Shown here piece after piece: positions 29,101 through 41,100 of a DNA stretch of 64,000 bases. Source of the DNA: Escherichia coli (GTDB lineage: Bacteria > Pseudomonadota > Gammaproteobacteria > Enterobacterales > Enterobacteriaceae); assembly GCF_050920415.1 (NCBI RefSeq), contig NZ_CP169310.1; one strand, written 5' to 3'. The position numbers are program-made. Within the stretch, counting starts at the first letter, position 1. Each line of letters opens with the position of its first letter.

Positions 29101-32100
29101 AAATAGCGGTTTTGCTGACACCAGTCTGCGCAGAAATGCGCGGGTACGACAGTGACTCGTCAAATCTCAGCTGTAGCACACGCGGGATTAATTCCGGATT
29201 ATCTGCCAGTACCGCCTTTCGTGCATTCATCTTAAATGTCCTTTTACTGCGAAAATGGACATTGGTATCGGAAACAGGAAAGGGAGGCGAAAGACGGTGA
29301 AGCGCTTACCATCAAGGCCAAGGGCGGTTAAGATATCAAAGTGAAATGAGTGCCGCTCCGATTAAGTGAACGGTATTTCACTGGTATCATTTTTTACTGC
29401 CTCATCCGGCGAAAAGATGCTTGATAAAGAATTAATCTCGTGAATATATATCACGAGTATATACTTTATCTCTGACATCCATTAATTCATCTGTAATTCT
29501 GTTCGCGAGTATAATGTCTGACTTTTTTTTGAATACAGGCAATTCATTGACTAATATTAAATCACTTACTGTTTTATTTTGCAATATTGGTTCATATATA
29601 ATAATAGATATGTCTCTTGACTTTAGTTGACGGATGATATCCATAACGGCAGACTCACGGAAGTTATCTGAACCATTTTTCATAATAACTCGATAAAAAC
29701 CCACTACTTTATGTTTTTTTTCCAATACTCTCTGTACAATAAAAGATTTACGTGTATCGTTTGCTCTCACTGTAGCAGTAATAATATCGCAGTGTATATT
29801 TAGTTTATCATAGTTTGCTTTCAGTTGTTTCGTATCTTTTGGCAGACAATATCCACCATAACCAAATGATGGGTTATTATAATAATCACCAATTCTTCTA
29901 TCCAGACAGACACCTCTGATTATATCTTTAGTGTTCAGCCCCGTAATTTCAGCATAGGTATCAAGTTCATTGAAAAATGCCACTCTTGTAGCGAGAAAAG
30001 CATTGGAAAATAGTTTTATTGCTTCAGCTTCTGCAGGCTCTGTGAACAAAACGGGTACATCCCTTTTCATTGCAGCATTTTTCATAATACTGGCAAAATG
30101 CCTCGCGCACTCTGAACGCTCTCCGATAATAATTCGAGATGGATAGAGATTATCATATAGTGCTTTCCCTTCACGTAAGAATTCTGGCGAAAATATTATT
30201 TTGTCAGTGCAATATTTATGTCTGACTTTTTTTGTAAATCCAACAGGGATCGTTGATTTAATGATTATCACTGCCTGTGGATTAAATTTTACCACATCTT
30301 CTATAACTGACTCCACAGAAGCAGTATCAAAGAATCCTGTATTAGGATCATAATCAGTTGGAGTAGCAATTATAACATAATCAGCATCTAGGTAAGCTTC
30401 ACTTTTATGCGTGGTTGCTTTAAAACAAATATTCCCATTTTGGAATACCTCCCGTATTTCATCATCATCAAGCGGTGAAATTCGTTTGTTCAACTGCTCA
30501 ACCCTAATGGCATCAATATCAAATGCCGTCACATTATGATAACGTGCAAGAAGTAGTGCATTGGATAACCCAACGTATCCAGTTCCTGAAACGGTAATAT
30601 TCATATTTCACACCATAAAAATAACGATTATTCAGTTAAATTTTTATTTCTACTTCTAGACCGACTGAATATGCAGGGGAACTGCGGGGAGAATTTTCAG
30701 TAGATGATGCCCGAAAACGCTCTGATGGCATAAACATCCCTAGCAATAGCTCAGTTTTTATATTTTTACTAAATTCGTAGCCCCAGATAAGATCTATTTC
30801 ACTCCCGAGATCCAGAGTAGAACTATTGTCATAACGGGACTTCAGGTCTGGATCATGAGAAGATAAAAAATCCCTGTCTGATTGTCTATAATAATGATAT
30901 ACAAGATCCAGTGAACTGCTTGGGGATATATCCATTCCAGTGCCAACCGTCAGGATACGTATATTTGTCAACTCTGGAGATAATGTATTACCATAAATAC
31001 TGAATTTAGTATTTCCACCAAAGCTGGCTTCATTCGACTGCAATCCGGTCTGATGATATTTTTTACTGGCTATGGCGTAACCCAGAGTAAAGCGGCTGCG
31101 CGATGGACTGTTATGAATCCAGGTAAGCCCTGCATCAATTACCCTCCCCTGATATTTTTTTTCGGATTTTTCTGCATACATTCCTCCGACCTCCAGCCAG
31201 TGCCGCCATCCCGTATCCGATGTACTGTGGGAACGTATCCCGTAAAAAGACTGACGCTCATATACATCATGCGTGTTTTTATTTACAGCAAAATAAATAC
31301 CGGTATCCCAGTCCTTTTCCACACTGTACTGCAAAAATGCAGATTGTACGGATATCACACTTTTGTTACGTGTTGTATCATCAAGCAAATCTCGCTGCCA
31401 GTAATTCACACGTCCTGCCACCATCTCCACCTGCCAGTCATCTTTTTTCCAGCGCCCCCATATACCATCAAGATTTTCATCAAAAAGCCATTCTCTGACA
31501 TCGCGGTACAGCCACCGCCCGGCTCGAATTTCTGCTCCGACTTCACGCAAACTTCCCCCTATATATCCCTGAGTCAGTTCCAGTCGGGTTTTATGTTCTT
31601 CTGGTTTACCGGAATCCCTCCTGGTTTTGTTTTTCAGTTCAGCTTCCGCCACACCATACAGAGAAGACTTTCTGGCAATCTCAATTCTTAAACGATATTG
31701 TGGCTCAAATTCATGTCGGTTTTCCTGCTTTTGTCCCTTCCTTAATGTTCTGTTCCGCCAGCTCTCGCCTTCCAGCTTCATTGTAGAATGAAACCGTATC
31801 AGTTGTTCCCGGTTACTTCTGTCCCCGGACAGACTGTTTTTTTTTGGACGAAATAACTCATTGTCAACAGACTCTGAAGCCTGTACCGGAACTACTCCAC
31901 AAACAAAAAACAGAAGAAAATAACCACAGAATCGACCGGAACCGTTTCTGAACATAATTAAAAATACTCCATGCACTTTTCACAATAAGCAAGCAAAAGT
32001 AGGGTGGTATGCTTCCGCCCCGGAATTCGGGTACTCAAAAAAATATGCCGGGCCAGTGATAACAACCGGAACCCTTCCGTTTCTTTCACTGTTACCCCGG

Positions 32101-38100: not shown

Positions 38101-41100
38101 CAACATCACTGCCTGAGCAAATTCGTGTACATGATTATATCCGGGATCGGAAAAACATCCGGAAAGTTCCGGTAGTAACGGAAAAGAACGGCGCAGTAAA
38201 TCATGATAATATTCAGCATTATATTGCCTAGAATTAAAACGAGTTACCGGTGCTTTTACCCGGGAAATAGATTCCTGAAAAAAAGCCTCCTGAACATCTC
38301 CAAGGGCGAAAATATCCAGCTTCATTCCGGCTCGTTCATGAGCGAGAATTTCATTGACAATAAATGTTTCTGAAAAGCGGGGATAGCGTTTAACCACATA
38401 TCCGACATAAGGGTGTTTATTATCCATTACACTCTCCATGCCATTGATTTTAATTATTTTCTCTCCGCGCTGTAAATATCGCGTTCATTTTTTCTGTAAA
38501 GGAATGCAGCCCATTCAGACTGAGGTAAAGTCGTGGATCTGAAGGACACCAGTCGGAAATCAGCCAATCAGTTATTGACTGTGGCGTCAGACTGTCCGGA
38601 TGCAAACATGTAACCAGATTCTTTTCTGCCATCCGTGAAGCACGTATCCATTGCTCAAGACGAGGAACAATACGGGGAATAATCAATGCCCGTTTCCGTA
38701 ATGAAAGAATTTCCCGTAAGGTGTTATATCCCCCCATTGCCACCACGCTGTGCGTATGCTGTAGAAGAAAAAGAGGATCAGATACAAAACGAATAATATG
38801 TAAATCATTACGCATGGACGCAATACGCTGTAATGATGTCACTTCCTCCCGAGCCATCTGGCTACCGGTAAGAATAACACCGTCCATCCCTGGCGGTAAC
38901 AATGTCTCTGCAAATACAGATGCAAGGTGGTAGCCATCCTGCCCTCCCCCTGTAAGACATAATACGAATGGACGAGAAATCAGAGACTGAAATTGCTCAT
39001 CCTGTAACACCGATGGAGATAATGGAACATCCGGATATCCAAGAAAACTGATTTTTCGGTATACTGATGGTTCCGGAGCAAGATCAAGCGACAAATCATA
39101 GAATGAACGATCGCCATAAATCCATATATCAGAATAATACTGACGGACAATCGTATAATTATCTGCAGCATGCCATTGATGACGAACAACTGATGGTTCA
39201 TCAATAATATCCCTGAGTCCAAGAATCAGATGCACATTATCATCAACCAATTCCGGAAGCACCGGCAGCAGTTCTGATAACGCCCCAGCAGGTACATTAT
39301 CCACAACCATTACATCCGGACAATATTCACTCAATGCAGCTCGAATTATCTGTCTCCGAAGGCTAACCAATTTCCGGGTATTATTGCCCAGTGACCGGGG
39401 GTGATATTTGCCGCACAACGTTTTGGCATAGGCTGGTAACGTAAGAATATCTGAGCGTTCAGGTAGTGTAAATAATCCGGATTCACGGGCACTGTTAATA
39501 ATCAAAATTTCAGTATCAGAAAACCTTTTCTGAACTGCTCCTGCAAGCAAAAGATTTCGCCGTAAATGCCCAAGCCCCATCGTATCATGAGAATAAAACG
39601 CCAGCTTCATATCATCAATAAATTTAAAATGTCAATATTTCTATCATTTTTAAATAGCTACCGCACTAATTATAACAATTAGCATTAAACTTTTTAACCC
39701 ATTTTGTTTTTAGATTTAATGTTTTAAATACTGGCAGATACTCAGCAATTTTCCCAACGAGATAAAATGCTATTATTTTTTAACATCCTTTTACACCAGT
39801 ACCCAAGTATATAAAATAAATAATAAGTCATCTTTCTAAATAATTTTAACTAATTGTGTACTCCTCTTTAAAATGTGCACAATTAGTTAAAACTTGGCTT
39901 CTACATTCTCTAGATGTACACATCCCTGTTTGCAAGGCTGAGGTGTACTGGCAATAGCGGACACCACCATTTGTTCTTTTTCTAAGCAGCCATCTGATAA
40001 TATTTTATCCTGAAGGCTGCCGGGGAGATATTCCCAGACGAGAGTGACGACGCTGACGATTGTAAAAAATCTCAATGTATTCCCGTATTACTGAGATGGC
40101 CTCATCCCAGCTCTTAAAACGATAGTTGCTCAGACTTTCATTTTTCAGTGTTCCCCAGAAGCTTTCCAACGAAGCGTTGTCGTAACAGTTACCTTTACGC
40201 GACATTGATGTTTTCAGACCAAACTGTTCCTGTATGGCCCTGTAATCGTATGCTCAGTACTGTGAACCACGATCGGAGTGGTGGATTATCCCGGCAGGTG
40301 GGCGCTGGTTCCTGAGCACCATAAACAGGGCTTTACCCGTCAACTCTTTCGTCATGCGCTCTCCCATGGCGTAACCGACAATTTCGCTCGTATAAACATC
40401 TTTGACGCCAGCGATATACAGCCATCCTTCCCGGGTGGCAACATACGTTATATCTAGTGGTCAACAAAAACTGGCCACCGCGTTAGAGTTTTTCCAGTAT
40501 CGATTTTCCGATTCGTTTGGGGGTAACCCACCGTTATATTCGTGCGGTCTTAGTGCGCTGTAATATCCAACGATAGAGCCTGCGGTAATGCTTATTCCCG
40601 ACGGTTCATGCCTGACAATTACATATAAAAATATTCCGGAGGGGCTATCCAGCCCCTCAACAGAATAAGTTATCAGCGATATCTGCTATCAGAAATCATA
40701 CCGAATACCCAGTCTCCCTTCAGCATCGGTCTTAAAGTAACCATCAAAACTGCTGTTCACTTTTGCCTGTACTGACAGTTTATCTGTCAGCTTTCCGTTG
40801 ATACCAAACGAAACGGTATAGCGGTCAGCTTTCTCTGCATCATAGTGACGGGCTTTCCAGTCATCACGTAGGGTCATTCCGGGCATATCGTTAAACGTGA
40901 TATTCCGCCAGATACCTGCCTTCAGCGTCATATTTCCAAATAATTTTTCTGCCTCAACCCCGGCTTTCAGCCACAAGGCATCGCCATCATGAAGCTCCAC
41001 GCTCCGCTCCCGGCCCTGCAGACGATTTCCGTCCACCCGTGCACCGTTCAGTGAAACAGTCGGTGTTATCGACATATCAAGAGGGGATGCATACATCTTC

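Follow-up and report, generated by a model that had tools for sequence, protein, structure and literature searches.

We analysed a 64,000-nucleotide stretch of Escherichia coli DNA (contig NZ_CP169310.1, assembly GCF_050920415.1; hereafter the window), in which eight minus-strand genes encode three glycosyltransferases (GTs), an ATP-binding cassette (ABC) exporter, two kinases, an outer-membrane barrel and a nucleotide-sugar dehydrogenase. An earlier reading made from the sequence alone had taken this block for a glycan synthesis, phosphorylation and export operon outside the canonical capsule and O-antigen layouts, and our analysis supports that view. The eight open reading frames (ORFs) occupy 29432-39610, and the RefSeq annotation of identical plasmids has these eight genes as well. 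In the order of transcription, the block consists of the following features.

39669-39697, minus strand: sigma-70-like promoter candidate upstream of the first gene (TTAAAA-17-TATAAT, extended -10 with TG), from a consensus scan only.
38450-39610, minus strand: GTx, a GT-B glycosyltransferase of 386 aa with a GT1/GT28-like fold, first gene of the core (ORF and AF2 model).
37192-38439, minus strand: GT4a, a retaining GT4 glycosyltransferase of 411 aa from the RefSeq start at 38427 (NCBIfam).
36026-37195, minus strand: GT4b, a second GT4 glycosyltransferase of 389 aa (GT4 family matches).
34222-36036, minus strand: type I ABC exporter, a half-transporter of 604 aa with fused transmembrane and nucleotide-binding domains (TMD and NBD; NCBIfam).
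32946-34271, minus strand: kinN, a cap domain and the first APH/ELK kinase domain, 428 aa from the RefSeq start at 34232 (longest ORF 441 aa; APH match, 2e-14).
31958-32971, minus strand: kinC, the second APH/ELK kinase domain, 337 aa, with a GTG start 26 nt inside kinN (APH match, 9e-6).
30636-31976, minus strand: AlgE-family outer-membrane beta-barrel, 439 aa from the RefSeq start at 31955 (PF13372).
29432-30604, minus strand: ugd-type UDP-glucose 6-dehydrogenase of 390 aa, 34.7% GC (TIGR03026).

Using the RefSeq start wherever it differs from that of the longest ORF, four of the seven junctions overlap (GT4a/GT4b by 4 nt, GT4b/exporter by 11 nt, exporter/kinN by 11 nt, kinN/kinC by 26 nt), and the remaining three are gaps of about 22 nt (GTx/GT4a), 2 nt (kinC/barrel) and 31 nt (barrel/ugd), in agreement with the tight coupling claimed by the sequence-only reading. 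Its domain calls also stood for the two GT4 enzymes, the fused TMD-NBD exporter, PF01636 in both kinases, the PF13372 barrel and the AT-rich ugd. It had drawn the block up to 39889, but 39611-39889 proved to be a noncoding, AT-rich leader (28.6% GC) that forms the promoter region. An Rfam scan of 28400-40800 (E ≤0.1) gave no match, hence no known riboswitch or leader. When a conserved regulatory leader was sought, the upstream region did not align with that of a second E. coli variant (L089), in which all eight genes lie together and are 87% identical; the leader is thus local and outside the mobile module. The same AT-rich region holds an 18-nt inverted repeat at 39844-39892 (TTTTAACTAATTGTGTAC / GTGCACAATTAGTTAAAA, 13-nt spacer), about 150 bp upstream of the promoter-like site and absent from the second variant, which could be an operator or the relic of an insertion sequence (IS) end. 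GC content is 34.7% in ugd (24.6% at third codon positions), 43.2% in the barrel gene, 43.8% in GTx and 46-49% in the remaining five genes. Mosaic acquisition, proposed earlier from this variation, fits ugd and perhaps the barrel gene but not the rest, and the eight genes were already together in the 87%-identical variant. For every one of the eight genes, comparison of the two variants gave a dS within 0.33-0.71 and a dN/dS within 0.12-0.20, a pattern indicating that all of them are under purifying selection.

Relatives were sought in one genome per species of 100,044 species with two peptide patterns taken from fused kinases only, which undercounts them. The scan gave 181 tandem-kinase relatives, and 80 loci were retrieved. 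In every one of the 69 loci long enough to hold five genes, GTx, GT4a, GT4b, the ABC exporter and the kinase follow one another in the same order on one strand. The carriers among Enterobacterales are Enterobacter, Mixta, Serratia, Brenneria, Pantoea, Erwinia, Tenebrionibacter and Enterobacillus; the others include Pasteurellaceae (with Aggregatibacter actinomycetemcomitans), Neisseria, Thauera, Lampropedia, Granulosicoccus and many Rhodobacterales and, beyond Proteobacteria, Planctomycetota, Actinomycetota and Chloroflexota. Gene calls with Pfam marks in individual loci confirmed the core order, also in Pseudorhodoferax, and the order extends to the cyanobacteria Nostoc and Calothrix, whose kinase has a single domain. 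GTx proteins are 42-57% identical across phyla, those of Nostoc and Calothrix included, and keep 45 invariant columns over 55 orthologues, among them the N-terminal YSHD..G.GH.RRN and GGGQDG; more than 5,000 GTx relatives exist. A tandem-kinase profile matched 4,340 representatives (clustered at 50% identity) at E ≤1e-30 among 1.84 billion proteins, and its best 150 matches all span the whole tandem architecture. These results show that the true unit is a five-gene core (GT1-like/GT4/GT4/ABC exporter/kinase) conserved across at least five phyla, and not the idiosyncratic eight-gene mosaic first described. The synteny search that had been suggested for the eight genes returned the full set only in the E. 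coli versions, and the barrel and ugd are accessory to the core. In none of the related loci examined did we find a priming phosphoglycosyltransferase, a polymerase, an OPX protein, an adaptor or a sugar-modifying pathway. This constancy of GT number, order and sequence reverses the pattern of capsule and O-antigen loci and speaks for a single conserved product, not for a variable antigen.

The two kinase genes, which had been counted as separate APH-fold kinases, do contain one APH domain each (PF01636, E 2e-14 in kinN and 9e-6 in kinC) but belong together. Searches with the 441-aa kinN query found fused homologues of about 760 aa in Mixta, Brenneria, Erwinia, Neisseria, Thauera, Rhodobacterales and others; kinN aligns to residues 1 to about 440 of these proteins and kinC to their C-terminal half, with no overlap, and the E. 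coli break falls in a variable linker of the alignment. Judged by these alignments, kinN and kinC are the halves of one ancestral tandem kinase of about 760 aa that is fused in nearly all relatives. The catalytic signatures H-x-D-F-x-x-D-Q and D-x-D are kept in both halves (HGDFSADQ and IDWD in kinN, HRDFYPDQ and LDFD in kinC) and are invariant over 59 sequences. A decaying frameshift was considered as the origin of the split and rejected: neither half is disrupted in either E. coli variant (dS about 0.35, dN/dS about 0.19; 0.20 for kinN and 0.18 for kinC), and the Shine-Dalgarno sequence GGAGGA ahead of the GTG start of kinC is present in both, so the split is old and maintained.

The AlphaFold model of a fused orthologue (pLDDT 94.5) consists of an N-terminal cap domain followed by two kinase domains; the cap is what had earlier been taken for a duplicated N-lobe. 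In Foldseek, the top match of this model was maltokinase 4u94 (E 1e-10, 499 columns, reaching into the cap), with glucosamine kinase and NahK also among the kinase matches. The kinase fold, the catalytic H-x-D loop and the metal-binding D-x-D/DFG-like motif place the protein in the APH/ELK superfamily (PF01636), and the modelled fold is that of general small-molecule APH/ELK kinases, for which the earlier label of Kdo-kinase fold was too specific. The likeness to maltokinase is at fold level only (12-14% identity), with profile matches of E 5e-7 to 2e-5 confined to the catalytic core, and neither TreS nor GlgE occurs in any cassette locus. A reading of the locus as a ribosomally synthesized and post-translationally modified peptide (lanthipeptide) system, raised by a weak LxmK match of kinN, was rejected: no lyase or cyclase was found in any locus, although a precursor peptide was not looked for.

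Natural fusions place the kinase within the pathway. In P0184 the ABC exporter is fused to the tandem kinase (42% identity to the E. coli exporter), with a barrel and a methyltransferase gene downstream, and in P0205 GT4b is fused to the tandem kinase (38% identity to E. coli GT4b, 388 aa). Taken together, these fusions locate the function of the kinase after the last GT and before the pump. In P0150 and P0142, whose loci are otherwise canonical, an N-terminal sulfotransferase precedes the kinase, which shows that this step can also supply a second anionic decoration.

Counted within 10 kb either side of the kinase, an Alginate_exp barrel occurs in 22 of the 69 loci, mostly directly after the kinase, in Enterobacterales, Thauera, Lampropedia, Competibacteraceae, some Paracoccus and Pseudorhodoferax; in Nostoc and Calothrix an OprB-family porin (NCBIfam por_somb, 448 bits) takes its position. 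The E. coli barrel matches PF13372 at E 1.5e-23 over residues 66-431, with a signal peptide read from its sequence only, and 16 positions are arginine or lysine in at least 80% of 19 orthologues. The dehydrogenase scores 342 bits against the nucleotide-sugar dehydrogenase model TIGR03026 (cut-off 190) and 568 bits against the Ugd equivalog PRK15057 (cut-off 757). A ugd gene follows the kinase in five Pasteurellaceae/Neisseria loci and in N. yangbaofengii; barrel and ugd together were found only in the E. coli versions. The E. coli protein is 61-62% identical to Salmonella and Citrobacter Ugd and 53-55% identical to the cassette Ugd of Pasteurellaceae and Neisseria. Being closer to the enterobacterial chromosomal enzymes, it indicates that ugd was recruited at least twice, independently.

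We propose, with a probability of about 0.45, that the block is a self-contained pathway for a conserved, acidic, phosphorylated, glucuronate-containing oligosaccharide which the cell releases. In the cytoplasm, at the face of the membrane, three sugars would be added from nucleotide sugars to an acceptor by the GT1-like enzyme and the two GT4s. UDP-glucuronate would be one of the donors, supplied by the linked ugd, and because ugd has been linked repeatedly and independently, glucuronate is very probably involved. KinN and KinC, with two predicted active sites, would phosphorylate the finished glycan with ATP as the last cytoplasmic step, an order suggested by the fusions and the gene order, and this phosphorylation would probably license export. 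A homodimeric ABC exporter would carry the product across the inner membrane, and the arginine-rich AlgE-type barrel would let the anionic product pass the outer membrane passively. Where no barrel is linked, the product may stay periplasmic or use another channel. The sequence-only reading had instead suggested a glycolipid or lipid-linked glycan, which we do not favour in view of the diffusion-type barrel, the OprB-type porin of two cyanobacteria, the lack of a lipid-carrier enzyme and the invariant GT content.

In Pfam, GTx gives only marginal GT28_C (E 0.22) and Glyco_trans_1_3 (E about 0.2) matches, and PF04101 (GT28_C) matches are precomputed for many of its orthologues. The best PDB folds for its AF2 model (pLDDT 92.3) are CalG1, OleD, plant UGTs and GtfD (E 1e-11 to 2e-13), so that GT1 enzymes, which glycosylate small acceptors, rank first; the earlier call of a GT28/MGT-like enzyme becomes that of a GT1/GT28-like fold. 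Both GT4a and GT4b have many GT4 family matches, and Glyco_transf_4/Glycos_transf_1-type Pfam domains are recorded for their orthologues. The best NCBIfam match of GT4a (dN/dS 0.13 between the two E. coli variants) is an EpsE-type GT4 at 177 bits (cut-off 400), followed by WcaL and TuaC. Its nearest solved sequences are BshA, MshA, sucrose-phosphate synthase and PimB, and those of GT4b are sucrose-phosphate synthase Tll1590, MshA and GlgM, with PimA and PimB also among the solved relatives of the GT4 enzymes. Such relatives (BshA, MshA, sucrose-phosphate synthase, GlgM) mostly use small, anionic, soluble acceptors. PDB sequence searches with GTx, kinN, kinC and the barrel returned nothing informative.

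The likeness of GT4a to EpsE, WcaL and TuaC, which act on lipid-linked acceptors, and of the exporter to MsbA would suit an undecaprenyl-diphosphate-linked surface glycan exported by an ABC-dependent route. The three GTs would extend a primer of the housekeeping kind, such as the Und-PP-GlcNAc made by WecA, the kinase would cap the non-reducing end as a WbdD-like terminator and the pump would act as a PglK/Wzk/MsbA-type flippase, before ligation to lipid A-core or another anchor. The GT28_C (MurG-type) match in several GTx orthologues fits this route as well; the methyltransferase after the barrel in L091 and the sulfotransferase fusions recall terminal capping chemistry, and ABC-dependent O-antigen clusters likewise lack a priming enzyme of their own. 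On the other hand, the cassette also occurs in Actinomycetota, Chloroflexota, Planctomycetota and Cyanobacteria, across which a common ligase or primer cannot be assumed, and its invariant, strongly conserved GT content is unlike that of surface antigens. The porin-type barrel would have no role in a ligase route, and no Wzm/Wzt, carbohydrate-binding module or coiled-coil ruler is present. We regard such a glycan as the main rival, though rather unlikely.

The exporter is the only transporter, and no ABC-2 genes (Wzm/Wzt, KpsM/KpsT) are annotated in the window. Among NCBIfam models it scores 380 bits against MsbA_lipidA, 320 against a HepA-family model and 276 against an NdvA-type glucan exporter, all below the cut-offs; for the MsbA equivalogs, TIGR02203 requires 602 bits for the 380 obtained and NF008381 867 for 316. 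Its nearest PDB sequences are ABCB1, Sav1866, BmrA and MsbA, and the conserved charged residues of its membrane domain, which we listed, give no ground for choosing between a soluble substrate and one linked to a lipid. This resemblance to lipid flippases would also agree with an anionic membrane glycolipid, such as a glucuronate-containing tri-glycosyl diacylglycerol (DAG), whose phosphorylated head group would be flipped outward by the MsbA-like pump. GT28/GT1-like and GT4 enzymes do make glycosyl-DAGs in many bacteria, and GT4s make glucuronosyl-DAG; weak matches to monoglucosyl-DAG synthase and GlcN-PG synthase were obtained, besides the solved relatives PimA and PimB. These lipid-GT matches are all far below cut-off, however, no acyltransferase or lipid-transport (Lpt/Mla-like) gene is linked, and AlgE-type and OprB-type channels carry no lipids, which would leave the linked porins without a role. 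A glycolipid is therefore an improbable product.

Regulatory genes accompany part of the relatives. In 23 loci the upstream flank holds a divergent two-component system, which resembles heavy-metal or PhoQ/PmrA-like systems with scores below the cut-offs, and PepSY proteins accompany such systems in Pseudorhodoferax (L096 6037-8766) and Nostoc (L094 18642-21272), a recurrence that hints at cation or envelope-stress control of the cassette; the E. coli plasmid copy has no linked regulator. The adjoining sensor kinases would also befit a conjugation-and-efflux cassette. In it, a foreign or toxic small molecule would be inactivated through glycosylation by the GT1-like enzyme, which might be a glucuronosyltransferase, and phosphorylation by the APH-type kinase, and the ABCB-type pump would expel the conjugate, much as in GT/Mph resistance to macrolides or in the phase II/III detoxification of eukaryotes. 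The fold of GTx resembles that of OleD and further aglycone GTs, the tandem kinase belongs to the same APH superfamily as the macrolide, capreomycin and corramycin kinases, the closest solved sequences of the exporter are multidrug pumps, ugd and sulfotransferase are linked, and the cassette is mobile and found on plasmids. Detoxification hardly explains why two more GT4s are always present and co-ordered, and stepwise assembly agrees better with a dedicated channel in the outer membrane and with the fusion of GT4 and kinase. No curated resistance model was matched above its cut-off; the best match of the kinases to a resistance phosphotransferase (APH, Mph) was Mph(F), with 17 bits where the cut-off is 650. 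Searches with PADLOC gave no defence-system match, only generic ATPase- and kinase-motif matches with E ≥1e-4 except for the ABC ATPase domain. We consider the efflux explanation highly improbable.

Several points weigh against a released, phosphorylated oligosaccharide as the product. The exporter has its best score against the lipid flippase MsbA, and GT4a against GT4s of undecaprenyl-linked exopolysaccharide pathways, though all of these are below cut-off; GT28_C-type GTs, moreover, often use lipid-linked acceptors. In 47 of the 69 loci no outer-membrane protein is linked, and the alignment suggests that kinN of Enterobacterales has an arginine at the putative ATP-binding beta3 lysine position, where most other sequences have lysine. 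That the product is soluble we infer from the channels and the GT relatives. In a more specific form of the oligosaccharide pathway, the cassette would be a glycan secretion route independent of lipid carriers, in which a fixed trisaccharide-type molecule, built in the cytoplasm, receives from the tandem kinase a phosphate tag (elsewhere also sulfate) that licenses type I ABC export, and departs by way of a dedicated porin; we put this forward tentatively and hold it to be doubtful as it stands. If it is true, the product would be a shared extracellular or periplasmic metabolite, such as a cation buffer or a signal, in line with conservation from cyanobacteria to enterobacteria and with the hints from the linked PhoQ/PmrA-like, heavy-metal-type and PepSY-associated two-component systems. 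The exporter would then be physically coupled to the kinase, and E. coli would have recruited the cassette onto a virulence plasmid next to colonisation factors.

A second, related gene set lies divergently from the canonical cassette in Nostoc parmelioides (L094 526-9342). It comprises two GT28_C GTs, an ABC exporter, two GT4 enzymes and one GT2, with a His_Phos_1 histidine phosphatase in place of the kinase, and this paralogous set may remove a phosphate instead of adding one.

The carrier of the E. coli block is a p7v-like chimeric plasmid combining virulence traits of Shiga toxin-producing E. coli with those of the enterotoxigenic type (STEC/ETEC). The 10.7 kb around the block are 100% identical to E. 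coli plasmids of 138-242 kb (GB089, 09-00049 and OkiPb strains) from cattle, food and humans, and the whole window is collinear with pOkiPb01701_1 at ≥99.98% identity. Among 5,426 complete E. coli genomes, 17 carry the complete block, on a plasmid every time, and PLSDB adds carrier plasmids in Escherichia cryptic clade I. Plasmids of the p7v type have been described with K88-like fimbriae, EatA, EspP, STa and secretion systems (PMC10100065); the operon goes unmentioned in that description (PMC10100065). Two boundaries of the island were taken from RefSeq annotation, that at the ugd side from the collinear plasmid.

28630-29230, minus strand: IS66-family remnants, boundary at the ugd side.
39982-40454, minus strand: IS3/IS600-family remnant, boundary at the promoter side.

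The IS600 sequence at the query end matches many E. coli genomes. According to RefSeq, fdnGHI adjoins the block on one side and a SPATE protease gene and an F4/K88-like fimbrial operon on the other, which sets the cassette among genes for K88-like fimbriae, an EatA-type protease and the STa toxin. Directly after ugd in the 87%-identical variant stands a gene of the PAPS-reductase family (L089 14889-15427), with fimbrial genes upstream; given the sulfotransferase-kinase fusions, a link to sulfur activation is conceivable, and it may be coincidence.

Other parts of the window drew attention as well. A complete fdnGHI-type formate dehydrogenase-N operon lies on the plus strand at 23929-28525. Its fdnG-type alpha subunit is a single ORF of 1016 aa with no in-frame TGA and with Cys in the motif ARLCHGPT, the position which we take to be selenocysteine in E. 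coli K-12 FdnG, and by its sequence it looks like a Cys-type, selenium-independent copy. A 1.54-kb segment occurs twice (198-1738 and 19273-20814, 99.2% identical), each copy with sta1 for the STa heat-stable enterotoxin (at about 638-856 and 19714-19932) and flanked by IS91/IS3 fragments. Within the SPATE gene at 40689-44528, 165 bp are duplicated in tandem (41661-41990, minus strand; perfect register, 98.8% identical), so that the EatA-like S6 autotransporter protease contains a 55-aa segment (…VQEKDGRVYWQLKSHAGTTESQISP.VSDGVTDTTSPVAPDTGNTGSTEADG…) twice. At 5789-11814, adjoining IS1414, this virulence plasmid carries a 3-hydroxybenzoate/gentisate degradation operon with mhbT, gentisate 1,2-dioxygenase, an FAH-family hydrolase, maiA, 3-hydroxybenzoate 6-monooxygenase and a LysR regulator.

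The sequence-only reading had singled out the block as a candidate for an undescribed system, and the gene set indeed matched no characterised locus in the databases and literature searched. No NCBIfam equivalog, PADLOC model, Rfam family or PDB entry describes it, and no description was found in the literature searched, outside which most subscription-journal papers lie. Thousands of relatives of the tandem kinase and of GTx, a cassette with one gene order in at least five phyla, and no curated model, structure or paper found for it, in combination usually mark a conserved molecule awaiting discovery. If phosphorylation licenses export, the principle of modifying a glycan before exporting it, seen in a few O-antigens, would extend to a different class of transporter. 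From its place on the hybrid plasmids, the product could be a factor for colonisation or of the surface that has so far been missed in emerging hybrid pathogens. As an entry point the E. coli version is handy: it is complete, has its own ugd and channel, resides in a tractable host and encodes the kinase as two separately mutable genes.

Known glycan pathways resemble the cassette in part. The absence of wzx/wzy, wzm/wzt, kpsMT, wza/wzc and an initiating phosphoglycosyltransferase, noted earlier, was borne out across the window by the annotation of the collinear plasmid. No Wzx, Wzy or initiating phosphoglycosyltransferase was found among the eight proteins or in the flanks of related loci, and no OPX or PCP protein (KpsD/KpsE, Wza/Wzc) in the window or the related loci examined. 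The O9a system of E. coli (WbdA/B/C, WbdD, Wzm/Wzt) shares with the cassette completion of the glycan in the cytoplasm by GT4-type enzymes, a eukaryotic-like kinase, ABC export and a cluster without a priming enzyme, and the fusions suggest the same logic of modifying before exporting. Unlike O9a, the cassette has a fused type I exporter, a tandem APH-type kinase without a coiled-coil ruler or fused methyltransferase, a linked porin and a GT set that is invariant across phyla. Export of cyclic beta-1,2-glucan (NdvA/ChvA/Cgt) also uses an MsbA-like half-transporter for a soluble cytoplasmic glycan; the cassette exporter reaches 276 and 228 bits against the NdvA and ChvA models, below their cut-offs of 733 and 585, and where that system has the giant Cgs/NdvB synthase, the cassette has three GTs of one domain each, together with a kinase and a channel in the outer membrane.

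The alginate porin AlgE (PF13372) is matched by the barrel over nearly its full length, with many conserved arginines as expected for an anionic-glycan channel, although the barrel has no PDB sequence match. Alginate secretion differs in Alg8/44, AlgK, AlgX and AlgG, which the cassette does not have, and in its c-di-GMP-controlled synthase, which is replaced by an ABC pump; no GT2 synthase, PilZ or TPR protein is encoded in the block. The mycobacterial maltokinase Mak/Pep2 gives the best fold match to the tandem kinase, and in profile searches its family and that of the actinobacterial glucosamine kinase match both halves. The flippases MsbA, PglK and Wzk share the exporter fold; MsbA_lipidA gives the best NCBIfam match (380 bits against 602), PglK is matched through the NBD only (159 bits against 1000), and the E. 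coli chromosome has its own msbA. With Nod factors (NodC/NodH/NodS/NodIJ), the cassette would share, by analogy and not by homology, the concept of a short conserved oligosaccharide with anionic or methyl decoration and ABC export, and the sulfotransferase fusions and neighbouring methyltransferases of its relatives recall Nod-factor decoration; it has, in contrast, no GT2 chitin-oligomer synthase, no acyltransferase and another type of ABC transporter. The cassette shares its logic with four known systems, namely ABC-dependent O-antigen synthesis, cyclic-glucan export, alginate secretion and decorated signalling oligosaccharides, and fails the defining tests of each; we class it as an undescribed variant of ABC-exporter-dependent glycan secretion.

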